A stretch of 64,000 bases of DNA from Escherichia coli (GTDB lineage: Bacteria; Pseudomonadota; Gammaproteobacteria; Enterobacterales; Enterobacteriaceae). Made by a program: the position numbers and the translations under genes. The DNA lies in the NCBI RefSeq assembly GCF_050920415.1, contig NZ_CP169309.1. The stretch is one strand, 5' to 3'. Position 1 is the first letter of the stretch, and every line of letters starts with the position of its first letter. The notes under the pieces are model-generated. The model was given only the letters and a program-made list of their open reading frames with translations, ran no database searches and had not been told where the DNA came from. Of this stretch, positions 5,265-62,000 are shown one piece after another.

Positions 5265-5446
5265 CATTGCCGGATGCGATGCTGGCGCATCTTATCCGGC
5301 CTACAGGTGCCACCTTCCGAAGGTCGGATAAGGCGTTTATGCCGCATCCGACTGTCATTGCCGGATGCGATGTTGACACATCTTATCCAGCCTACAGGTG
5401 CCATCTTTCGTAGGTCGGATAAGGCGTTTATGCCGCATCCGACTGT
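5265..5446. repeat. Two tandem 91-bp units of REP/BIME-type palindromic repeats between ybaL and gsk
   Basis: Unit beginning CATTGCCGGATGCGATG repeats at 5265 and 5356 with a few substitutions; contains GCCGGATGCG...CGCATCCGGC-type palindromes typical of enterobacterial REP elements. Confidence 0.85.
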
Positions 5447-5461
5447 CATCAGTCCGATAAC

Positions 5462-6766
5462 TTAACGATCCCAGTAAGACTCTTCCAGACTGTCTTCACG
5501 CTCCGGTAAGCCGCGCGTTAAACGAGGTGAATGCTGGTTCAGTACCTGATAGCTCACACGGTTAGCATATTTACACACCTGCGCTAATGACGAATACGTT
5601 AACCAGGTGAATTTATGTTTGCTGGAGTTTGGTACGTTGCTACGGTGGTAGCTGTTGGCGGTAATGTCATGCAGCAATGCTGCCAGTGCGCCATCCCCCG
5701 CTCCGTTAGTGTTCATGATTTTTTCCGGCCCGCCCATGTACGGCGCAATGTGCGAATAGACACGCAACGGATTCTGACAATCCTTGTGGCGCATGGCGCG
5801 GCTAAACTCATACTGGTTAAATTCCGCGATAGCGCCCGGCAGCAGCGGATGCTGGGTTTTGCGTTTCGCTTCGTCTTCGGTAAAGCCCGCCATATACAAG
5901 CCGATTGGTCCGGCGGTACACAGCACCAGATCAACCCAGTCCAGCGCCTTGTCAGATGCCAACAACGGATCGCTTTCTCCGGTCAACGCTTCGGCCTCAT
6001 CTTCGTTCATCGCAAGGATAGAGACGTGATCTTTGAGGAATTGCTGCCACCACTGCGGATTCTCGGCAATGACAAACTTGGTGCCCAGCGTCAGCACCAC
6101 CGGTACGTTATATTTCTTCGCGTACTCAATGGCTTTCATGGTTGCTTCCGGCATGGGTTCACCCGGCTTGCAACGCACCAGATAAGAAGTGAGAACCAGC
6201 GCCGAGGCTCCGGCAATCACATCTTCCGGAATACTTTCAGCCCGCAGCTGGTTCATGTGGCCAGGGCTGATAGCAAAGGTACGTTCCCCGGACTCGCCAA
6301 TCAGCGTAAAGCAACGACCAATCGGGCCATCCACGCCTTGTAGATAGTTAAGATCGGTACGGCTGGAGGTGTTACATAGGTAACGATAGGCATAGCTGCC
6401 AATTTCAATATTGCTGCACATGACGCCCAGCAGCACCGAACGGTCGTCCGCGAGCACCGAGTAGTTGTGCATGGTGTTACCAATAGTGCCACCCGCAAAT
6501 TGATGGGTAATCAGGTTTTTCTGTTTCAGCTCCTGATAAAGTGCTTCGGCAACATCATCCTCAATCACCAGTGAATGCCCGGCGCTTAATCCATAACGCT
6601 CAATGAACTCATCATCCACTTTCGCTTCAATATCGACCAGCGTTTGATCGATACCCACTACCCAGGCAGCGCTGGTTTCGTTTTCTGGCTGGAATTGCTG
6701 AAGCAGCGGATCTCGTGCGTTTACGGGAAAATAATGTTTGGATTTACGTTTGCCGGGAAATTTCAT
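5462..6766 (-). CDS. gsk: Inosine-guanosine kinase (434 aa)
   Basis: Full-length ORF recognised as E. coli Gsk; synteny. Confidence 0.88.
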   Translation of the reverse strand: MKFPGKRKSKHYFPVNARDPLLQQFQPENETSAAWVVGIDQTLVDIEAKVDDEFIERYGLSAGHSLVIEDDVAEALYQELKQKNLITHQFAGGTIGNTMHNYSVLADDRSVLLGVMCSNIEIGSYAYRYLCNTSSRTDLNYLQGVDGPIGRCFTLIGESGERTFAISPGHMNQLRAESIPEDVIAGASALVLTSYLVRCKPGEPMPEATMKAIEYAKKYNVPVVLTLGTKFVIAENPQWWQQFLKDHVSILAMNEDEAEALTGESDPLLASDKALDWVDLVLCTAGPIGLYMAGFTEDEAKRKTQHPLLPGAIAEFNQYEFSRAMRHKDCQNPLRVYSHIAPYMGGPEKIMNTNGAGDGALAALLHDITANSYHRSNVPNSSKHKFTWLTYSSLAQVCKYANRVSYQVLNQHSPRLTRGLPEREDSLEESYWDR

Positions 6767-6917
6767 GGTTGTTTTTACGGGTGGTTAACTGAGCGGCGAA
6801 TGTTAACACAATCTGACGGGAGCGCGCGAGACGCAGCCAGTTTCAATATCAGCAGGCGGGATCGCATTTTCATGGCAGTGGTTCCTTACAATGACGTAAT
6901 TTGAAAGGAGTTTTTGC

Positions 6918-7877
6918 ATGAAGCCGGAAAACAAATTACCCGTTCTGGACCTTATTTCTGCTGAAATGAAGACCGTTGTGAATACTCTTCAGCCGGATTT
7001 ACCGCCCTGGCCCGCAACGGGAACGATTGCAGAGCAACGTCAGTATTACACGCTTGAACGCCGATTCTGGAATGCTGGCGCTCCAGAAATGGCAACCAGC
7101 GCTTACATGGTTCCCACACCTTATGGTCAGGTCGAGACTCGCCTCTACTCACCCAAAAGTCACAGCCCGGCGACACTATTTTATCTGCATGGTGGTGGTT
7201 TTATTCTCGGCAATCTTGATACCCACGATCGGATTATGCGACTGCTGGCAAATTACACCCAATGTACAGTGATTGGTATTGCTTACACTCTTTCGCCGGA
7301 AGCACGTTTTCCGCAGGCAATAGAGGAAATTGTGGCTGCCTGTTGCCACTTCCACCAGCAGGCAGAGGATTATCAAATCATTATGTCCCGCATTGGTTTT
7401 GCCGGTGATTCCGCAGGTGCCATGCTGGCGCTCGCCAGTGCGTTGTGGTTACGTGATAAACAGATAGATTGCGGTGAAGTTGCGGGCGTTTTGCTGTGGT
7501 ATGGGCTTTACGGATTACGGGATTCCGTGACTCGTCGTCTGTTGGGCGGTGTCTGGGATGGCTTAACGCAACAGGATTTACAGATGTATGAAGAGGCGTA
7601 TTTAAGCCACGACGCTGACCGCGAGTCGCCGTATTACTGCCTGTTTAATAATGATCTCACTCGTGAGGTTCCGCCCTGTTTTATTGCCGGAGCGGAGTTC
7701 GATCCGCTGCTGGATGACAGCCGTCTGCTTTACCAGACGTTAGCGGCGCATCAGCAGCCCTGTGAGTTCAAACTCTACCCAGGCACGCTGCACGCCTTTT
7801 TGCATTATTCACGGATGATGAAAACCGCCGACGATGCTCTTCGCGACGGCGCTCAGTTCTTTACCGCTCAGCTTTAG
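6918..7877 (+). CDS. aes: Acetyl esterase, alpha/beta hydrolase (319 aa)
   Basis: HGGGF oxyanion-hole motif and GDSAG nucleophile elbow present; synteny. Confidence 0.9.
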
Positions 7878-8836
7878 CGATACGCAGCAACAAGATTAGC
7901 CATCATTTCGATATGTTCCGGTGTGGCATTAAGCGCCGGAATATATTCGTATTTTTTCCCGCCCGCACCGAGGAAGACCTCACGGTTTTGCTCGGCAATC
8001 TCTTCCAGCGTCTCCAGACAATCTGCAGCAAAGCCCGGGCACATCACCTGAATATGACCTACGCCTTTTTCTCCGAGCATTTTCAGCGTTTCGTCGGTAT
8101 AAGGCATCAGCCAGGGTTCCCGCCCAAAGCGCGACTGAAAGGTCATCATCACTTTTTCCGGTGCCATCCCCAGTACGGAAGCCAGTTCGCGAGTCGTTGT
8201 GCGACAACGTTGCGGGTAATCATCGCCTTCATCGGCATAACGCTGGGGAATACCGTGATAAGAGAGCAGCAGTAGATCCGGTTCGCCATGTTTGGCAAAA
8301 GAAGCACGTACGCTGTTCGCCAGTGCATTAATGTAATCGTGGTTATCGGCGTAATCACGAATAAACGATATCCCCGGAATGCTACGTTTGCGCGCCAGAA
8401 TGCGTGCCAGTTCATCCCATACCGCACCGACCGTTGAACAGGAGTATTGCGGATAAAGCGGCAGCACCACGATATGATCTACATGTTCTGCCAGTAGTTC
8501 ATCTACGGCGCTTTCCAGTGATGGCGAGCCGTAGCTCATTCCCAGCGCCACGGGCGTCTCCGGTAAACGTTGTGCCAGCGCCTGCTGTTGCTGGCGACTG
8601 TAAACCATCAGCGGCGAGCCGCCTTCCATCCAGACCGAGGCGTACAGCTTAGCTACGCGCGGTGAGCGCAGCGGCAAAATTACGCCGCGCAGCAACGGCC
8701 ACCACAACAGCCGTGAGGTATCAACCACGCGTCTGTCGCTTAAAAATTGTTTCAGGTAGCGTTTTACCGCTTCAGGTGTGGGGGCATCGGGCGTACCCAG
8801 GTTTGCCAGCAGAATACCGGTTTTAGTTTGACGCAT
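7874..8836 (-). CDS. hemH: Ferrochelatase (320 aa)
   Basis: Full-length ORF recognised as E. coli HemH; its stop overlaps the aes stop (TTAG shared). Confidence 0.9.
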
Positions 8837-8967
8837 TACCGCCTCTTATCGATTCAACTTGTTGATAATTGTAGCGGAAAAGTGAAGAAGAAGAACTAAT
8901 TGCTGCAAGAGGTATTGCCTGAGGAGAATGAGCAGACCTGCCCGAAAGCAGATCTGCTGCGGCTTGA

Positions 8968-9684
<717 letters not shown>

Positions 9685-9792
9685 TCAAGAAAGGCACCTG
9701 GGGCTGAAACGGTTAATGGCGAGATAATTTGCGGAAAGGACAGATGATGAAAAGAAAAATGCCGGATGACACGAGGGTCATCCGGCATTACA

Positions 9793-11667
9793 TCAGGAAA
9801 CCAGCAGCTGGTTCATACGACGAATAAACAGGTTCGGATCTTCCAGCGTACCGCGCTCTGCCAGCAGCGCCTGATCCAGCAGCAGTTCTACCCACTCGCT
9901 GAACTTCGCTTCATCTTCAGTATCTGCCGCACGTTTCACCAGTACGTGATCCGGGTTCAGTTCGAAGATGTATTTCACTTCTGGTACTTTCTGGCCCGCC
10001 GCAGCGAACAGTTTCGCCATCTGGGTGCTCATTTCGTCCGCGTCGGTCGAAACGATCGCTGGCGTATCGGTCAGACGGTGAGTCAGACGGACATCTTTCA
10101 CGCGCTCGCCGAGCAGGGCTTTCACACGGTCGATGAACGGAGTCAGTGCTTTCTCCGCTTCTTTCGCGCTCTCATCAACTTCGTCAGCCAGTTTTTCCAG
10201 CGACTCGTCAACTTTAGACACAGACTGGAACGGTTTACCGTCGAACTCAGTCAGATAGTTCATCATCCACTCATCAATGCGGTCGGAAAGCAGCAGAACT
10301 TCGATGCCTTTCTTACGCAGCAGCTCCAGGTGCGGGCTGCTCTTCGCTGCCGCGTAGCTGTCTGCGGTGATGTAGTAGATTTTCTCCTGCCCTTCTTTCA
10401 TGCGGGAAACGTAGTCTTCCAGAGACACGGTCTGCGCAGAAGAGTCGGTATGTGTAGAAGCAAACCGCAGCAGTTTGGCGATCGCTTCCTGGTTAGCGAA
10501 ATCTTCCGCCGGACCTTCTTTCAGCACCAGGCCAAACTGTTGCCAGAAGGTCTGATATTTTTCCGCGTCGTCTTTCGCCAGTTTTTCCAGCATTTGCAGC
10601 ACACGCTTAGTCAGCGCATTGCGCAGGTTGCGCGTTACTGTGCTGTCCTGGAGGATTTCACGGGAAACATTCAGCGGCAGATCGCTGGAGTCAATCAGAC
10701 CACGCACGAAGCGCAGATAGTTCGGCATGAACTGTTCTGCGTCGTCCATGATGAACACACGCTGGACGTACAGTTTCAGGCCGTGCTTATGATCGCGGTT
10801 CCACATATCCCACGGTGCCTGCGACGGGATGTACAGCAGGCTGGTGTACTCCTGCTTACCTTCGACACGGTTGTGGCTCCAGGTCAGCGGATCGTTAAAG
10901 TCGTGAGCGATGTGTTTGTAGAACTCTTTGTACTCTTCATCGGTAATTTCCGACTTGTTACGGGTCCACAGCGCCTGCGCTTTGTTGATTTTCTCCCAGG
11001 AGATAACGGTTTCGCCGTCTTTCTCTTCGCGTTTTTCGATCTCTACCGGCAGCGCGATATGGTCGGAGTATTTGCTGATGATGGAACGCACACGCCAGTC
11101 ATCGAGGAACTCGTCTTCGCCTTCACGCAGATGCAGGGTGATTTCAGTACCACGATCTTCTTTGGTGATGTCGGCAACGGTATATTCACCTTCGCCAGCC
11201 GATTCCCAGAAGACGCCGTTTTCTGGTTTTTCGCCTGCCGCGCGAGTACGCACGGTCACTTTGTCGGCCACGATAAACGCAGAGTAGAAACCAACACCAA
11301 ACTGACCGATCAGTTGGCTGTCTTTCGCCTGGTCAGAACCCAGGGATTCGAGGAATGATTTGGTGCCGGATTTAGCGATAGTCCCCAGATGGTCAATCAC
11401 TTCGTCGCGGGTCATCCCCACGCCGTTATCGGAGATGGTCAGCGTACGCTTGTCTTTATCGAAAGAGACACGAACGCGCAGTTCGCCATCACCTTCGTAC
11501 AGGTCCGGGTTAGAGAGCGCGCGGAAACGCAGCTTGTCCGCCGCATCGGAGGCGTTAGAGATAAGCTCACGCAGGAAGATTTCTTTATTGGAATAGAGAG
11601 AATGGATCATCAGGTGCAGAAGTTGTTTCACTTCTGACTGAAAACCACGAGTTTCTTGTCCTTTCAT
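9793..11667 (-). CDS. htpG: Hsp90-family chaperone HtpG (624 aa)
   Basis: Full-length ORF with GHKL ATPase N-terminus; recognised as E. coli HtpG. Confidence 0.95.
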
Positions 11668-12763: not shown

Positions 12764-14695
12764 TCAAATGGGGCGGATACTTTCTTCATCCAGCTCCGCA
12801 TCGAAGAACCGACGCAGGGTCTGAATATTATTATCCGCAATAATGGACTCGCGCGCCTGCGCAAGTTTTTCTTCGTATATCGCCTGACGCCATTCCAGCG
12901 GCGTACGCACCGCGGGATTATCATCTTCAACGATAGTCAGTTCAACCGTTGAACCTTTTAACGTGCTCAACGCTTCAGCCAGTTTTTGCTGTGCGCCGCT
13001 GTTATTCAGATGACGCTGAGAGGAGCGCAAATGCAGACACACCGTGTTGCCGTTCTCCTCTTTCCAGGCATTTAACGCCACCTGTTCGACCAGTTTTGGT
13101 AGCGAAAGTTGACTCACCTGAGCCGCCCACGGGTCGCGCTCAATGGCTTCTGCCGCCAGCTTCGCCGCCAGTTCCGGCGTTTTTTCATGTTCCAGCGCTT
13201 TTTTTAGCGCCTTCGGCGTGGCGACCACTTCTTTTTGCTGCATCACTGGAGTGGTAGCCTTCCAGCGATACGCTTCTTTTTTGGCTGGTGCTTTTTCCAG
13301 CGCCGATGGCACCGGACGCGCCTGAACGCGATCGGTGACCGAAGCCAGTCTTTCCAGCGCAGCGTTATTCACCGGCCGCGCGCGGGTAGCGGCTGCCGGT
13401 TCACTCTTTTTTGCTTTGGTTGCTCCCTGTGCGCGCTGCAGTTGTTGGCGCGCCGCCAGCACCTGGCTGGTGGTTTCTGAGAGCGGTACAGTCGGTGCCT
13501 GCTGCGGAGCTGATTGCGGTTGCGGCGGCACCTGGGTTGGCGTCATTACTGCCGTTGGCGCGACGGGCGCAAAAGACTGGCGTGGCACTTCTGGCTCAGG
13601 CAGCGGCATACGCGGATGAAACGCCAGTGCGCGCAACAGCGTCATCTCAACGCCCATGCGGCGGTCCGGCGCATACGGTAATTCTTTGCGACCAATCAAC
13701 AGCGTTTGATAGTAAAGCTGAATATCCGTCGGCGGTATGGTGCGCGCCAGTTCACGCATCCGCAGCTCGATGGCGGCCATGTCGTTGCCCAGCGCAGCAG
13801 GGGAAAGTTGCACCATTGCAATGCGGTGCAACAGGCCGAGCATTTCTACCAGCAACGCTTCCCACTCAATACCACGAGCGGCGGCTTCATTAATCAGCGA
13901 CATTACACGCTCGCCGTTGGCTTCAACCATCGCTTCAACCAGCGACAGCGCCTGATCGTCGTCAAGCGTACCCAGCATCGCACTGACCGCCTGAGTTGAA
14001 ACCTGGCCGTCACCGCTGGCAATCGCCTGGTCGGTCAGACTTAAGGCATCTCGCAGGCTGCCTTCAGCGGCGCGCGCCAGCAATTGCAGCGCCCGCGGCT
14101 CGTGAGCGATATGTTCTTCGTTGAGGATGTGCTCAAGCTGATGGCGAATTTGCTCGACATCCAGCGCTTTGAGATGAAATTGCAGACAGCGTGACAAAAT
14201 CGTCACCGGCAATTTCTGCGGATCGGTCGTCGCCAGCAGAAACTTGACGTGCTCCGGCGGTTCTTCAAGGGTTTTTAACAGTGCGTTAAAGCTGTGGCGC
14301 GACAGCATATGCACTTCGTCGATCAGATAAACTTTAAAACGACCACGCGCTGGCGCGTACTGGACGTTATCCAGCAGGTCGCGGGTATCTTCGACTTTGG
14401 TACGCGAGGCGGCGTCGATTTCAATCAGATCGACAAAGCGCCCCTGCTCAATTTCACGACAGTTATCGCACACGCCGCACGGCGTCGCGGTAATGCCGGT
14501 TTCGCAGTTTAGCCCCTTCGCCAGCAGTCGGGCGATAGAGGTTTTTCCGACGCCACGGGTGCCGGAAAAAAGATAAGCATGATGAATACGCCCTAACGAC
14601 AAGCCGTTCGCCAGTGCGGTCAGCACATGTTCCTGGCCGACGACGTCAGCAAAGGTTTGTGGGCGCCATTTTCGGGCTAAGACCTGATAACTCAT
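12764..14695 (-). CDS. dnaX: DNA polymerase III subunits tau/gamma (643 aa tau)
   Basis: AAA+ Walker A (GTRGVGKTS) and Zn-binding cysteines; internal A-AAA-AAG frameshift site. Confidence 0.95.
   Translation of the reverse strand: MSYQVLARKWRPQTFADVVGQEHVLTALANGLSLGRIHHAYLFSGTRGVGKTSIARLLAKGLNCETGITATPCGVCDNCREIEQGRFVDLIEIDAASRTKVEDTRDLLDNVQYAPARGRFKVYLIDEVHMLSRHSFNALLKTLEEPPEHVKFLLATTDPQKLPVTILSRCLQFHLKALDVEQIRHQLEHILNEEHIAHEPRALQLLARAAEGSLRDALSLTDQAIASGDGQVSTQAVSAMLGTLDDDQALSLVEAMVEANGERVMSLINEAAARGIEWEALLVEMLGLLHRIAMVQLSPAALGNDMAAIELRMRELARTIPPTDIQLYYQTLLIGRKELPYAPDRRMGVEMTLLRALAFHPRMPLPEPEVPRQSFAPVAPTAVMTPTQVPPQPQSAPQQAPTVPLSETTSQVLAARQQLQRAQGATKAKKSEPAAATRARPVNNAALERLASVTDRVQARPVPSALEKAPAKKEAYRWKATTPVMQQKEVVATPKALKKALEHEKTPELAAKLAAEAIERDPWAAQVSQLSLPKLVEQVALNAWKEENGNTVCLHLRSSQRHLNNSGAQQKLAEALSTLKGSTVELTIVEDDNPAVRTPLEWRQAIYEEKLAQARESIIADNNIQTLRRFFDAELDEESIRPI
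13406..13412 (-). other. Programmed -1 ribosomal frameshift heptamer A-AAA-AAG in dnaX (codons 428-430); the -1 frame reads GAG then UGA, producing gamma
   Basis: Heptamer located in frame by counting codons from the dnaX start; GC-rich hairpin immediately 3' at about 13372-13400. Confidence 0.85.
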
Positions 14696-27536: not shown

Positions 27537-28007
27537 ATGACCGAAATACAACGCCTGCTGACCGAAACGATTGAGTCTCTGAATACCCGCGAAAAACGCG
27601 ACAACAAACCCCGCTTTAGTATCAGTTTTATCCGTAAACATCCGGGGCTGTTTATCGGTATGTACGTTGCTTTTTTTGCCACCCTGGCGGTGATGTTACA
27701 GTCCGAAACGCTGTCAGGCTCTGTCTGGCTACTGGTTGTATTATTTATCCTGCTTAATGGTTTCTTCTTTTTCGATGTCTACCCACGCTACCGCTATGAA
27801 GATATCGACGTGCTGGATTTCCGCGTTTGCTATAACGGCGAATGGTACAACACGCGCTTTGTACCTGCCGCGCTGGTTGAAGCCATCTTGAACTCTCCGC
27901 GTGTCGCGGATGTTCATAAAGAACAACTGCAAAAAATGATCGTCCGTAAAGGTGAACTGTCTTTTTACGATATTTTTACCCTCGCTCGCGCCGAATCAAC
28001 ATCTTAA
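27537..28007 (+). CDS. ylaC: Inner membrane protein YlaC (156 aa)
   Basis: Start [15 protein letters not shown] chosen for K-12 length; two hydrophobic segments. Confidence 0.7.
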
Positions 28008-28164
28008 GTTAGGGTTACATACCAGGCGTAAAGCTCTGCGCCTGGTCAAATGACAACGTTCGTTTCCACCCATCTCTTCATGAAATCCCGGCTCTACCTC
28101 CTTATCTCCTGCCAGCCTTTTTCCACAATCAGATATACTTTCCCTACACTGTGTTAATAAGGAT

Positions 28165-29721
28165 ATGCTGGTGAGAACACGACATCTGGTCGGCCTTATT
28201 TCGGGAGTACTGATTCTTTCAGTATTGCTGCCTGTCGGCTTAAGCATCTGGCTGGCCCATCAGCAGGTAGAAACATCATTTATTGAAGAGCTGAATACGT
28301 ATTCCTCCCGCGTCGCTATTCGGGCCAATAAGGTGGCGACACAAGGGAAAGATGCGCTGCAAGAGCTGGAAAGGTGGCAAGGTGCGGCCTGTAGCGCAGC
28401 CCATCTCATGGAAATGCGTCGGGTATCTTACAGTTATCGCTATATTCAGGAAGTGGTTTATATCGATAACAACGTTCCCCAGTGTTCGTCTCTGGAGCAT
28501 GAAAGCCCGCCCGATACCTTCCCCGAGCCAGGTAAAATTTCGAAAGATGGTTATCGTGTCTGGTTAACATCGCATAACGATTTAGGCATTATCCGTTACA
28601 TGGTTGCCATGGGAACGGCACATTATGTCGTCATGATCGACCCCGCTTCCTTTATTGATATCATTCCCTATAGCTCATGGCAAATTGATGCCGCCATTAT
28701 TGGCAATGCCCATAACGTTGTGATAACCAGCAGTGATGAAATTGCTCAGGGAATTATTACCAGGCTACAAAAAACACCCGGTGAGCATATCGAAAATAAT
28801 GGAATTATTTACGATATCCAGCCCTTCCCGGAGATGAATATTTCGATCATCACCTGGGCTTCAACGAAAATGTTGCAGAAAGGCTGGCATCGGCAAGTCT
28901 TTATTTGGTTACCGCTCGGGTTGGTGATTGGCCTGCTGGCAGCGATGTTTGTGCTGCGTATTTTGCGCCGTATCCAGTCACCGCATCATCGGCTGCAGGA
29001 TGCTATCGAAAATCGTGATATTTGCGTGCACTATCAGCCGATTGTCTCCTTAGCCAATGGCAAAATTGTCGGTGCTGAGGCACTGGCGCGCTGGCCGCAG
29101 ACAGACGGTAGTTGGTTGTCACCAGATAGTTTTATTCCGCTGGCACAGCAAACGGGGCTTTCTGAGCCGTTGACGCTACTGATTATAAAAAGTGTCTTTG
29201 AAGATATGGGCGACTGGCTGCGTCAGCATCCGCAGCAGCATATTTCGATCAATCTTGAATCCACCGTACTCACCTCGGAAAAAATCCCGCAATTGCTGCG
29301 TGAAATGATCAATCACTATCAGGTTAATCCCAGACAGATCGCGCTTGAACTCACTGAACGCGAGTTTGCCGATCCGAAAACCAGCGCCCCGATAATTTCT
29401 CGCTACCGGGAGGCGGGCCATGAAATTTATCTCGATGATTTTGGTACGGGGTATTCAAGTTTAAGCTATTTACAGGATCTGGATGTCGACATTCTGAAGA
29501 TCGATAAATCTTTCGTTGATGCGCTGGAATATAAAAATGTCACGCCACATATCATCGAAATGGCAAAAACACTGAAACTGAAAATGGTAGCGGAGGGAAT
29601 CGAAACCAGTAAACAAGAAGAGTGGCTACGCCAGCATGGCGTGCACTACGGCCAGGGCTGGCTCTACAGCAAGGCATTACCGAAAGAGGATTTCTTACGC
29701 TGGGCCGAGCAACATTTGTGA
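28165..29721 (+). CDS. pdeB: c-di-GMP phosphodiesterase PdeB (YlaB): periplasmic sensor domain plus EAL domain
   Basis: N-terminal TM helix, second TM, C-terminal EAL domain (GAEALARW); start may instead be the GTG at 28171. Confidence 0.85.
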   Translation: MLVRTRHLVGLISGVLILSVLLPVGLSIWLAHQQVETSFIEELNTYSSRVAIRANKVATQGKDALQELERWQGAACSAAHLMEMRRVSYSYRYIQEVVYIDNNVPQCSSLEHESPPDTFPEPGKISKDGYRVWLTSHNDLGIIRYMVAMGTAHYVVMIDPASFIDIIPYSSWQIDAAIIGNAHNVVITSSDEIAQGIITRLQKTPGEHIENNGIIYDIQPFPEMNISIITWASTKMLQKGWHRQVFIWLPLGLVIGLLAAMFVLRILRRIQSPHHRLQDAIENRDICVHYQPIVSLANGKIVGAEALARWPQTDGSWLSPDSFIPLAQQTGLSEPLTLLIIKSVFEDMGDWLRQHPQQHISINLESTVLTSEKIPQLLREMINHYQVNPRQIALELTEREFADPKTSAPIISRYREAGHEIYLDDFGTGYSSLSYLQDLDVDILKIDKSFVDALEYKNVTPHIIEMAKTLKLKMVAEGIETSKQEEWLRQHGVHYGQGWLYSKALPKEDFLRWAEQHL

Positions 29722-29762
29722 ATTTTTGGGCTGACGGCACGCCGCACAGCCCGTCACGCTAC

Positions 29763-30116
29763 CTATTCGTCGATGATTGACTCGAATCCGCCATAGATCA
29801 TTCGCTTGCCATCAAACGGCATGGACTCGCCGAACTCCTTCATCCGTGGGTCCGACATCATCTTTTGATTAGCAGCGTCGCGGACCTCTTTTGAAGGGTA
29901 TTCAATCCAGCTAAAGACAACCTCTTCATTCTCTTCCGCTTTCACCGCCATACGAAAATCGGTCACTTTGCCATCCGGTACATCGCTGGCCCAGCATTCG
30001 ACAATACGAAGCGCGCCAAACTCTTTAAACAATGGCGCGGCCTTAGCGGCCATTTCCCGATAGGCATCCTTTTTATCGGCAGGAACGGCAACCACAAAAC
30101 CATCAACATACTTCAT
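29763..30116 (-). CDS. ybaA: Conserved protein YbaA (117 aa)
   Basis: 117-aa ORF at the syntenic position next to ffs. Confidence 0.8.
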   Translation of the reverse strand: MKYVDGFVVAVPADKKDAYREMAAKAAPLFKEFGALRIVECWASDVPDGKVTDFRMAVKAEENEEVVFSWIEYPSKEVRDAANQKMMSDPRMKEFGESMPFDGKRMIYGGFESIIDE

Positions 30117-30226: not shown

Positions 30227-30340
30227 GGGTGGGGGCCCTGCCAGCTACATCCCGGCACACGCGTCATCTGCCTTGGCTGCTTCCTTCCGGACCTGACCTG
30301 GTAAACAGAGTAGCGTTGCGGGAGAACCAACAGAGCCCCC
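30227..30340 (-). ncRNA. ffs: 4.5S RNA, the RNA component of the signal recognition particle (114 nt)
   Basis: Reverse complement reads GGGGGCUCUGUUGGUUCUCCCGCAACGC...GGCAGGGCCCCCACCC, matching the E. coli 4.5S RNA as recalled from memory, with the conserved GGAA tetraloop region. Confidence 0.93.
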
Positions 30341-30416: not shown

Positions 30417-30806
30417 ATGCTGGTTTCTTGCGCAATGCGGCTTCACTCGGGCGTTTTTCCAGATTATGCTGAAAAATTACCTCAGGAAGAAAAGATGGAA
30501 AAAGAAGATTCATTTCCCCAACGCGTCTGGCAAATCGTAGCCGCTATTCCCGAAGGCTATGTCACCACTTACGGTGATGTGGCGAAACTGGCGGGATCGC
30601 CCCGCGCCGCGCGCCAGGTGGGTGGTGTGTTAAAGCGTCTCCCGGAAGGCAGCACCTTGCCCTGGCATCGGGTGGTTAATCGCCACGGCACCATTTCGCT
30701 AACCGGACCGGATTTACAGCGTCAGCGACAGGCATTACTGGCAGAAGGTGTGATGGTGTCAGGAAGAGGGCAAATCGACTTGCAGCGTTATCGCTGGAAC
30801 TACTAA
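30417..30806 (+). CDS. atl: Alkyltransferase-like protein Atl/YbaZ (129 aa)
   Basis: MGMT-like fold with PWHRV replacing the catalytic PCHRV (Cys to Trp). Confidence 0.85.
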   Translation: MLVSCAMRLHSGVFPDYAEKLPQEEKMEKEDSFPQRVWQIVAAIPEGYVTTYGDVAKLAGSPRAARQVGGVLKRLPEGSTLPWHRVVNRHGTISLTGPDLQRQRQALLAEGVMVSGRGQIDLQRYRWNY

Positions 30807-30836
30807 CCCTCTCCGGGCGGAGAGGGTTAACTTCGC

Positions 30837-31409
30837 TTAATATTGCGTAGGAGCCGGAACTGCCGAAGACGGATTCACCTGGGTTGGTGAGGTCGAAGGT
30901 ACGGTAGTCGTTGCGCCACCGCTGGCCTGAACCGGCACGGCGGTTTGCTGCACCGGCACTAATGTCAGGTCCGCTTTGGTCCCGCCCTGGTTGATCACCG
31001 GCTGAACGGTATCGGTGATAAATACCAGTTTGTCATTCACGGTAATCGCCGCACTCAACAGAATACGCGCGTTCGGCTGAACGTCTGCCGGGTTAAATGG
31101 CAGAACAAAGCTGAATGGTGACTGTTTACCTTCAGTACGCACCGCTTTTTGCGCCAGCACTTTTGACGGTGCATCGGCTAATGATGCGTCAGAAAGTGTC
31201 ACGGTCAGCACGGCATCAGGCGGCAGTGCGACTTTCTGACGGATCCAGACGGTACCGGAAACATTCGGTTGCTGGATAGCAGGTTGCTGTGTTGCTGAAA
31301 TAGACGTATTTGCAGCCGGTGCTGGCGTCTGAATATCCGCGCTTTTATCTGCGCAAGCCGCCAACGCAATCGCAACCGCTAAACCACTGGCCATGTGCAC
31401 GAGTTTCAT
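30837..31409 (-). CDS. ybaY: Lipoprotein YbaY (190 aa)
   Basis: Signal peptide with lipobox (LAACA); syntenic position. Confidence 0.8.
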   Translation of the reverse strand: MKLVHMASGLAVAIALAACADKSADIQTPAPAANTSISATQQPAIQQPNVSGTVWIRQKVALPPDAVLTVTLSDASLADAPSKVLAQKAVRTEGKQSPFSFVLPFNPADVQPNARILLSAAITVNDKLVFITDTVQPVINQGGTKADLTLVPVQQTAVPVQASGGATTTVPSTSPTQVNPSSAVPAPTQY

Positions 31410-47912: not shown

Positions 47913-47995
47913 AGAGCTCTCTCTTAGTTTAATTTCCGCCAGGTAATCAGATGACACGACTGTGCTTCACGCCATCTATTAACATGTACGTCAGT

Positions 47996-48024
47996 ATATG
48001 GGGATGTTTCCCCCACATTCAACG
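47996..48024 (-). promoter_or_regulatory. Sigma32 heat-shock promoter of lon: -35 GTTGAATG, 14-nt spacer, -10 CCCCATAT
   Basis: Minus strand reads GGCGTTGAATGTGGGGGAAACATCCCCATATACTGACG. Confidence 0.75.
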
Positions 48025-48037
48025 CCGAGAATAGAGG

Positions 48038-48071
48038 AAAAATTAAAGGGGAGATAAAATCCCCCCTTTTT
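48038..48071 (-). terminator. Hairpin terminator between clpX and lon
   Basis: GGGGAGA-TAAAA-TCCCCCC stem with T-rich flanks on both strands. Confidence 0.6.
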
Positions 48072-48099
48072 GGTTAACTAATTGTATGGGAATGGTTAA

Positions 48100-60171: not shown

Positions 60172-60483
60172 ATGCCTGGAAAAACAGTCGCTCTACCCGA
60201 TATCGATAAAACGCTGAAAAATGCGCGGGTTGAACTCAAAACCAGTCCCGACGCCAAAAACAAACTTCGTGAAGCTGCGCAAGCCGTTGGGGTAGATTTA
60301 AGCGCTTTTATTTTGAGCGCAGCTATGGAACGCGCCGAAAGTGTGCTTGATAACCAACGTCGCCGTGAGCTTTCGAATCAAAGCTGGGAACTGATGAACC
60401 AACTCATCGCTGAACCTGCTCAACCGACGCTCGCCCTCAAGGCGTTAATGAAAAGGAAAAACAGCGATGGTCGACAAGCATGA
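60172..60483 (+). CDS. DUF1778-family ribbon-helix-helix antitoxin (TacA/AtaR/ItaR/KacA-like), 103 aa
   Basis: AAGAGG ribosome-binding site 6 nt upstream of the ATG; sequence fits the family pattern (VELKTSPDAKNKLREAAQAVGVDLSAFILSAAMERAESVLDNQRRRELSNQSWELM); overlaps the toxin start by 17 nt. The track ORF at 60106 is an upstream extension. Confidence 0.8.
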   Translation: MPGKTVALPDIDKTLKNARVELKTSPDAKNKLREAAQAVGVDLSAFILSAAMERAESVLDNQRRRELSNQSWELMNQLIAEPAQPTLALKALMKRKNSDGRQA

Positions 60484-61009
60484 AGAGATTACTCTGCCCA
60501 TAGTCCTCTCCTGTAATTATCAGTCTGATATTACTTATCCTGGGCAAAAACAGTTTGATTGCGGTAACCCTGTTATCGATAAATTTGTACGCGCATCGCT
60601 AAAGAAAAGTGTGCGTAATAGCGACTGTGCTGCTAAAGCACTTATTGACAGACAAAGTGGTGAACTGATTGGCATCTGTACTTTTACGGCATATTCGCTG
60701 GAAAAACAACGCGTTTCTGGCGTCCTTCAGGGTTCACAACCTTCAGAGATTGGTGTTGTCAGATTAGTCATGTTAGGGGTAGCGCGGAAATATCAAAAGC
60801 GGGGCTTTGGTCAGGACCTACTATGTGATTTTTTTGAACATGTAAAAATAATTCACCGGGCATTACCAATTAAAGGGGTTTATCTTGATGCTGACCCTGC
60901 CGCCATTAACTTTTATACTCGTCTCGGCTTTGTTCAGCTTTCAGCGAGGCCCAATGTTTTCGGTGCTGTACCGATGTTTTTAGCGATTCAGCATATTCTC
61001 GCGGCTTAG
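60467..61009 (+). CDS. GNAT-family acetyltransferase toxin (TacT/AtaT/ItaT/KacT-like), 180 aa; predicted aminoacyl-tRNA acetyltransferase
   Basis: N-terminal FDCG motif typical of these toxins, acetyl-CoA motif A (QKRGFGQ), C-terminal YxxLGF; ATG overlaps the antitoxin 3' end. Confidence 0.8.
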   Translation: MVDKHEEITLPIVLSCNYQSDITYPGQKQFDCGNPVIDKFVRASLKKSVRNSDCAAKALIDRQSGELIGICTFTAYSLEKQRVSGVLQGSQPSEIGVVRLVMLGVARKYQKRGFGQDLLCDFFEHVKIIHRALPIKGVYLDADPAAINFYTRLGFVQLSARPNVFGAVPMFLAIQHILAA

Positions 61010-61253
61010 ATTTTTATCGCCTCCGGCCATGGCAAGTTTTGCCTCAGCCGGAGACTGAACAGCGTTACCACTTTTGTTCAATTGCCCCCGCTTTCATCAG
61101 GTCCACATCCTTGCCTTTAATGGTTGCCGTTGCGGCAACGATCGTGGTCCTTATAGCTGCACAAGATTTTCGTTCAAATTCCGGTTTATAAAGAATAAGC
61201 AACGAATTACTGGTAAATGAATCAAGCCGGTAATCTGTAAAGTTAATATCCAG

Positions 61254-62000
61254 TCAGTTTAAGCCGAAAGGTGCAAAGCCGACCGTTTGAATAGTTTCCT
61301 TACCTGACGGACTCTTGATGTTGTACGTAACACGAAGATTGGCCACTTCGCCTAATTTATTGGTTTTGGCAAAGAGGCTATCCATGCAGGAAAAACCTTT
61401 ATCTAAAAAATTATCCCGCATTCCAGAACGGGTAATCGTGATCACCGGTAACGTATCGTCAACCGTTTTTCTGTCAATCATATCTTTTCGACAGGCGGCC
61501 ATAAAGTCTTCCGGACCAGCATAAATGTGAACACCCTTATCAAGATATTCTTTCGCTTTACTACAATCCACCTCGACATACTGACCATTGGCGTACATCA
61601 TGCCCAACCTGGACCATGCTAAATTCACACCGCGTTGCGTAGCCTGATTAAATAACGCATACGCTTTGGCATAATCCACCCGCACCTGTTCACCTTCGTA
61701 GTAGATATCCCCCAGCGCTAACGGAGCTTCTTCATCACCTTGTTTAGCGGCTAACTCGAACCATTTAATGGCTTCCGGAACGTTGGGTTTGGTATCGTAG
61801 CGGGGCTGATAATATTCCCAGCCTAACAGGCTTTGCGCGTCGACATCCCCCGACTCAGCCATTTTATGCAGTGTCCTTATCACATCGGGGGCAGGCTTTT
61901 CACTGTATATGCTGTCATACAATTCATGCGCTTTCTCGCTTGCCAGTGAACCTTGTGAGGCAATTAATAAAATAGCCAATAAACTCTTTTTATTTAACAT
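61254..62000 (-). CDS. Secreted Sel1-repeat (TPR-like) protein with an unassigned C-terminal domain of about 85 aa (248 aa)
   Basis: N-terminal signal peptide (MLNKKSLLAILLIASQGSLA|SE), about three Sel1-like repeats (e.g. LGDIYYEGEQVRVDYAKAYALFNQATQRG, LGMMYANGQYVEVDCSKAKEYLDKG); the C-terminal 85 aa has no motif I recognise. Confidence 0.75.
   Translation of the reverse strand: MLNKKSLLAILLIASQGSLASEKAHELYDSIYSEKPAPDVIRTLHKMAESGDVDAQSLLGWEYYQPRYDTKPNVPEAIKWFELAAKQGDEEAPLALGDIYYEGEQVRVDYAKAYALFNQATQRGVNLAWSRLGMMYANGQYVEVDCSKAKEYLDKGVHIYAGPEDFMAACRKDMIDRKTVDDTLPVITITRSGMRDNFLDKGFSCMDSLFAKTNKLGEVANLRVTYNIKSPSGKETIQTVGFAPFGLN

Follow-up and report, generated by a model that had tools for sequence, protein, structure and literature searches.

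How do two genes that face each other without a single nucleotide between their stop codons bring their transcription to an end? The question is raised by aes and hemH, which meet in a 64-kb stretch of Escherichia coli DNA (hereafter the window, to which all positions refer unless another genome is named). The plus strand carries aes at 6918-7877, the coding sequence of an acetyl esterase of 319 amino acids (ORF list, RefSeq annotation and family NF007547), and the minus strand carries hemH at 7874-8836, encoding the ferrochelatase of 320 amino acids (ORF list, RefSeq annotation and TIGR00109). Read directly, aes ends in CAG CTT TAG, with CTT (Leu319) at 7872-7874 and the TAG stop at 7875-7877 (+), and hemH ends in TAT CGC TAA, where CGC (Arg320) is the reverse complement of 7877-7879 and the TAA stop that of 7874-7876 (-). 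Sequence and ORF list give an overlap of 4 nt between the two coding sequences, the tetramer TTAG at 7874-7877 (CTAA in the hemH sense), whose central TA is common to both stops. The third base of each stop faces, on the other strand, the wobble position of its partner's last sense codon, Leu319 CTT in Aes and Arg320 CGC in HemH. A first-pass annotation of this DNA had described the aes TAG and the hemH TAA as overlapping in TTAG, with no intergenic space for a terminator, and the sequence and the ORF coordinates agree with it on both points. Its further claim, that the 3′ ends of the two transcripts must overlap, is borne out by data from strain K-12, where the pair is a published convergent excludon (PMC12288877) and a Rho termination region is found in antisense aes (PMC7815308). 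Our answer to the question, which we regard as probable, is that aes and hemH form an ordinary tail-to-tail overlap of 4 nt between two real genes, the first of which would end its transcript at a predicted intrinsic terminator and the second by means of Rho.

A wrong stop, whether from an error of sequencing or from a frame called wrongly, could also have given such a compact junction, with no true overlap, which was the circumstance that the first-pass annotation itself had named as fatal to its reading. This explanation can be dismissed for practical purposes. Aes matches the acetyl esterase equivalog model NF007547 of NCBIfam with 616 bits over residues 1-319, and HemH matches the equivalog TIGR00109 with 447 bits over residues 1-319; since the two matches span the family models from one end to the other, both stops are genuine. 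In RefSeq, the identical 4-nt overlap is annotated in three independent records, those of MFDS1022581, a K-12-type strain and MG1655 (hemH 498055..499017, aes 499014..499973). Besides, at least 4868 of 5426 complete E. coli genomes match a 46-nt probe of the junction with an identity of 99% or more, and both C-termini are conserved across genera in the loci that carry aes. On the full-length family matches and the conservation of the junction, we rejected the reading as a sequencing error or frameshift.

The locus itself is present in 5424 of the 5426 complete genomes. Identity over positions 7400-8400 is 100% with MFDS1022581 and about 97% with most E. coli, and a single base separates the first 28 kb of the window from MFDS1022581. 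In the closest public record, NZ_CP169399.1, there is an IS2 insertion of 1336 bp (L076 28167-29395) that the window does not have at the corresponding site (about 28000-28113, ylaC/pdeB). As the first 28 kb otherwise show one mismatch, the window would represent either a very close relative of that strain or its state before the insertion.

An overlap of this kind is a common arrangement. The modal overlap length of prokaryotic genes is 4 bp, and CTAA, TTAA, CTAG and TTAG represent the only tetramers that can end two convergent genes (Lillo & Krakauer 2007, PMC2174442). The same study counted 58 convergent overlaps in E. coli, and another listed 75 convergent overlapping pairs (Huvet and Stumpf, PMC4161906). 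The pair aes-hemH is a plain member of the class, with genes on opposite strands, facing 3′ ends, a shared TTAG of exactly 4 nt and no spacer, and we find no difference from it. Even the TAG stop of aes fits the class, in which TAG is in excess among convergently overlapping E. coli genes (19% versus 8%, PMC2174442). Within the 64-kb window, one of the nine convergent pairs overlaps. The overlap is not beyond what chance or neutral processes produce, and it is already known: it stands in the reference annotation, belongs to a common class, and the pair has been catalogued as an excludon.

Other facing genes in the window can be noted in passing. Two convergent pairs with spacers, pdeB/ybaA (29721-29763, 41-nt spacer) and the ybaZ-like MGMT gene/ybaY (30806-30837, 30-nt spacer), appear in the published MG1655 excludon list as ybaA-pdeB and ybaY-ybaZ, respectively. 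Farther along, in the region of 60172-61009 and 61065-62000, a DUF1778 gene and a GNAT-acetyltransferase gene overlap by 17 nt in a layout like that of the TacA/TacT toxin-antitoxin; they face a tetratricopeptide-repeat gene, listed in the closest record as a pseudogene that contains an internal stop.

The distribution of the junction was followed through a scan for HemH with one genome per species, which yielded 72 loci, Klebsiella and Enterobacter proper not being among them. Wherever an Escherichia, Salmonella or Citrobacter locus bears aes, this gene lies tail to tail against hemH, and 20 of the 27 such loci share a 4-nt stop overlap, either TTAG or TTAA. Other spacings are a gap of 2 nt (L011 and L039), a gap of 0 nt (L038) and an overlap of 10 nt (L015, L017 and L060); in Trabulsiella (L033), a 52%-identical aes homologue overlaps hemH by 11 nt. 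The type of the aes stop follows exactly the wobble base of the last sense codon of hemH: with C (CGC) aes ends in TAG, and with T (CGT, or the Leu codon CTT in locus L021) it ends in TAA. The geometry of the code offers a simple origin for this arrangement, where a gene ending in Y-TAA or Y-TAG automatically offers the opposite strand, in one of its frames, a TAG or a TAA, at which an abutting convergent ORF can end. Once it exists, the tetramer is locked, with its central TA required by both stops and its outer bases free to toggle only between T and C or between G and A. The conservation of the tetramer can be put down to purifying selection on two protein ends, and selection for regulation need not be invoked.

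In the window, a mutated aes stop would add 58 residues to the protein (the mutated codon itself plus 57 further codons, up to the next stop at 8049-8051), and hemH has a back-up stop, TGA, at 7868-7870. Two Escherichia lineages depart from the common pattern. In Escherichia sp. E1V33 (L009 1400-1990) only residues 1-83 of Aes are matched, and the hemH stop has changed to CAA, which adds two residues; in E. albertii NBRC 107761 (L008 3960-4240) a 13-nt deletion adjoins the junction and the aes match ends at residue 211. Judged from these sequences, aes looks inactivated in both strains.

The genera without aes give a glimpse of what the locus may have looked like before. In Pantoea, Mixta, Pluralibacter, Superficieibacter and others, the gene gsk comes next to hemH in the same direction, at a distance of 16-107 nt, and the spacer between them often contains a strong hairpin with a T-run. 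This comparison, which rests on a scan without Klebsiella or Enterobacter proper, suggests that aes may have been inserted, in inverted orientation, into the hemH-gsk spacer, displacing the original terminator of hemH. Several of the aes-less loci (L048 3964-4000, L026 3985-4015 and others) have a conserved hairpin with the core GAGAATGTG.TATCATTCTC and a T-run about 20 nt before the ATG of gsk; there is no such hairpin upstream of E. coli gsk (window 6767-6917).

Where no spacer exists, neither mRNA can end before it has entered the other gene. This is a general property of the class: a Rho-independent terminator of a convergently overlapping gene has to sit in the coding sequence of its partner, and 23 of 116 such genes have one (PMC2174442). 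For aes, a terminator scan together with RNA folding points to a candidate intrinsic terminator at 7909-7957 (+), inside hemH codons 294-310 and 32-80 nt past the aes stop. The hairpin has a 16-bp stem with one bulge (7909-7924 paired with 7933-7949) and an 8-nt loop, and it is followed by UAUUUUUU at 7950-7957; the scan itself calls the stem-loop at 7910-7947, followed by a T-run. Folded alone, the 41-nt hairpin reaches -21.4 kcal/mol. Positions 7909-7957 have the make-up of an intrinsic terminator, a stable stem-loop directly followed by a U-tract, and this is so in Escherichia and Salmonella; in the Citrobacter freundii complex the U-tract is broken (K295Q, TATTGCTT).

A hairpin inside a coding sequence may simply reflect the protein that is encoded there. 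We recoded synonymously the last 42 codons of HemH and took, in each recoding, the strongest terminator-like hairpin at any position up to 126 nt from the aes stop. The observed value of -20.8 kcal/mol is equalled by only 1.7% of the recodings (mean -11.5, standard deviation 4.6). An earlier form of the test at a fixed position, which gave about 1% for the hairpins of both sides, was discounted and replaced by this one, because the position had been chosen post hoc. Conserved HemH residues do dictate much of the hairpin, which keeps a mean of -12.6 kcal/mol after recoding. The structure occurs in all 27 aes-bearing loci, with energies of -17 to -23 kcal/mol, and most aes-less loci have -4 to -12 kcal/mol, with the exception of two aes-less Trabulsiella genomes that keep an equally strong hairpin. 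We do not count this difference as evidence of selection, owing to phylogeny, to differences in Pro and Ala residues and to the two Trabulsiella exceptions. A covariation test on the 27 sequences found no compensatory changes in any of the 16 pairs, a result indistinguishable from that of shuffles. The signs of selection on this hairpin thus point both ways.

Published transcript ends of K-12 speak against the hairpin as a terminator of aes. Neither hemH nor aes contains a 3′ end in the Term-seq tables of PMC7815308, and none is listed close to the end of either predicted hairpin; the tables have no entry near 498934(-), where expression is possibly too low for a curated 3′ end. The SMRT-Cappable-seq supplements (PMC6131387) have no entry for hemH or aes. 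Taken together, 7909-7957 is a plausible, though unproven, intrinsic terminator of aes. As for other elements, Rfam gave nothing at the junction, either with gathering thresholds over the whole window or with E≤1 over 7300-8500, and a sigma-70 promoter scan of 6500-9800 returned no site. Elsewhere in the window, Rfam matches above gathering scores at 5322-5392, 13367-13431, 30236-30332 and 47984-48079 correspond to naRNA4 (an element of the REP type that lies between ybaL and gsk), the frameshift element of dnaX, ffs (the SRP RNA) and sraA; each of the four is expected in this part of the E. coli chromosome.

On the opposite strand the situation is of another kind. The hemH-sense RNA has a weak hairpin running from 7852 to 7826 (-10.6 kcal/mol) and followed by GUUUUCAU, which together occupy 7818-7852 (-), 22-56 nt past the hemH stop. 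In the same best-anywhere test, 33% of the synonymous recodings of Aes do as well, and since one third of them equal it, this hairpin carries no weight; it is probably not a dedicated terminator of hemH. There is no convincing intrinsic terminator for this gene. What the hemH-sense RNA does contain, antisense to aes and 261-468 nt past the hemH stop, is a rut-like stretch at 7406-7613 (-), with 32-41% C and 14-19% G, a C-rich and G-poor composition that would be expected where Rho loads on untranslated RNA.

A published Rho map of K-12 supports this pathway. Adams et al. (2021, PMC7815308, supplementary file 2) report for MG1655 a Rho termination region at 499332(+), labelled as “antisense aes”, where the coverage upstream and downstream is 79 and 24 without bicyclomycin (BCM) and 422 and 522 with it (Rho score 4.07, p 6.2e-10). 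Read-through at this site of K-12 is raised by the drug, as is the case for Rho-dependent termination. Transferred through the MG1655 coordinates of hemH (498055..499017), the position falls 315 nt past the hemH stop, at about 7559 of the window and inside the rut-like stretch; the figure of 315 nt is approximate, because the Rho score uses windows of 800 nt. These measurements were made in K-12 and are carried over to the present strain by an identity of 97%. Within the class of Rho read-through described in that study, the hemH strand would be a regular case, with a BCM-sensitive drop after untranslated RNA, at a C-rich and G-poor stretch, but one measured in K-12 at a resolution of 800 nt.

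The other end of hemH shows features of its own. The same authors list a second Rho region in K-12 at 498060(+), corresponding to about 8831 (-) of the window and 5 nt into the hemH ORF (score 4.02, p 1e-17), which suggests that Rho limits the read-through from adk into hemH. The adk-hemH spacer has 131 bp in the window (8837-8967) and 235 bp in K-12 (L003 1821-2055), where about 104 extra bases include a GGGG/CCCC-rich repeat and a GCCGGAT hairpin with a T-run. A K-12 Term-seq 3′ end at 497939(+), 116 nt upstream of hemH, falls in this K-12-specific segment, so that the termination of adk probably differs between strains.

Termination at the aes/hemH junction looks asymmetric, intrinsic for aes and Rho-dependent for hemH. 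Transcription of aes would end at the predicted terminator of 7909-7957, written into the last 27 codons of hemH. For hemH, the ribosome would leave at the stop codon and RNA polymerase would run on through antisense aes, until Rho stops it some 300 nt later at the C-rich, G-poor stretch, a step supported in K-12 by its sensitivity to bicyclomycin and transferred here. Between about 7559 and 7957, over some 400 nt, the two transcripts would be complementary to each other, in agreement with the published listing of the pair as a convergent excludon. The complementary region would reach both coding sequences, and not the 3′ untranslated regions alone.

Would such a duplex mean that the two genes regulate each other? 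In the classical excludons of Listeria and Staphylococcus aureus, reciprocal expression has been demonstrated, whereas hemH-aes is documented by coverage overlap only. The gene hemH is induced by OxyR, and one can imagine a functional excludon in which the overlap has been selected, for example because the read-through of OxyR-induced hemH lowers aes through polymerase collision or RNase III. In its more elaborate version, the pair would be a regulatory switch, where stress-induced hemH reads about 300 nt of antisense aes and lowers the esterase by collision or by RNase III acting on the duplex of about 400 nt, and where selection has favoured the hairpin inside hemH as a terminator of aes that determines how far the duplex extends. 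Several facts speak in this direction: transcription of the hemH strand does extend into antisense aes, the tail-to-tail arrangement, with spacings from -10 to +2 nt, is kept across Escherichia, Salmonella and Citrobacter, and excludon pairs as a class have higher synteny. Moreover, hemH-aes is in Table 1 among the 165 convergent excludons that ExcludonFinder reports for MG1655 (Sanmartin et al. 2025, PMC12288877), 146 of which have termination signals predicted inside the transcription unit of the neighbour; in the present pair the signals would likewise lie inside the neighbour. That a signal lies inside the partner unit is, however, a logical necessity when there is no spacer, with the Rho region of hemH being supported and the hairpin of aes predicted. 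The excludon call itself means that the RNA-seq coverage of the two genes overlaps in half or more of 58 samples, in vivo data that concern only the 97%-identical K-12 locus, and such a call is nearly automatic for an expressed pair whose coding sequences already overlap. The validation of double-stranded RNA with p19 was not feasible for convergent pairs (PMC12288877). The constraint on the two stops accounts in full for the conserved tetramer, an esterase and a ferrochelatase have no functional link, and with so few reads on the hemH strand (79 and 24 per 800 nt) collisions and duplexes would be rare. A selected, functional excludon is in our opinion unlikely, and so is the full regulatory switch, with its selected hairpin; the antisense interference between the two transcripts that the first-pass annotation had raised is a possibility permitted by the data.

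Polymerases could also stop each other in a different manner. Overlapping bidirectional terminators, driven by head-on collision and independent of Rho, have been attributed to hundreds of E. coli genes (Ju et al. 2019, as recounted in the preprint 10.1101/2022.10.23.513370), and hemH-aes resembles that system, to the extent that the preprint describes it, in being a convergent pair with a stable stem-loop (7909-7949) near the junction. In the hemH-aes locus, however, the U-tract is found on the plus strand only, and the drop of the hemH strand in K-12 is sensitive to BCM and sits about 315 nt past the junction, away from the hairpin, so it contrasts with the Rho-independent ends that the preprint ascribes to such terminators. 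The low expression of the hemH strand would also make head-on encounters infrequent. A single stem-loop that ends both strands without Rho is not what the locus shows, and we deem mutual, collision-driven termination very unlikely here. The asymmetric arrangement, with a predicted intrinsic end for aes and a Rho-dependent one for hemH, is the reading we prefer over both alternatives.

Taken alone, the junction of aes and hemH matters little, but it is a clean and well-conserved example of how genes without any spacer still end their transcription, and it could serve to test what regulatory effect, if any, follows from the many convergent excludons that coverage data define. To what was already known of the pair, the present analysis adds the asymmetric model of termination and the observation that a synonymous position in hemH determines which stop codon aes has. 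Two forms of coupling between the facing genes come to light: the wobble base of hemH codon 320 dictates how aes stops, with C giving TAG and T giving TAA, and a terminator-like hairpin can be carried within the conserved coding sequence of the opposite strand.
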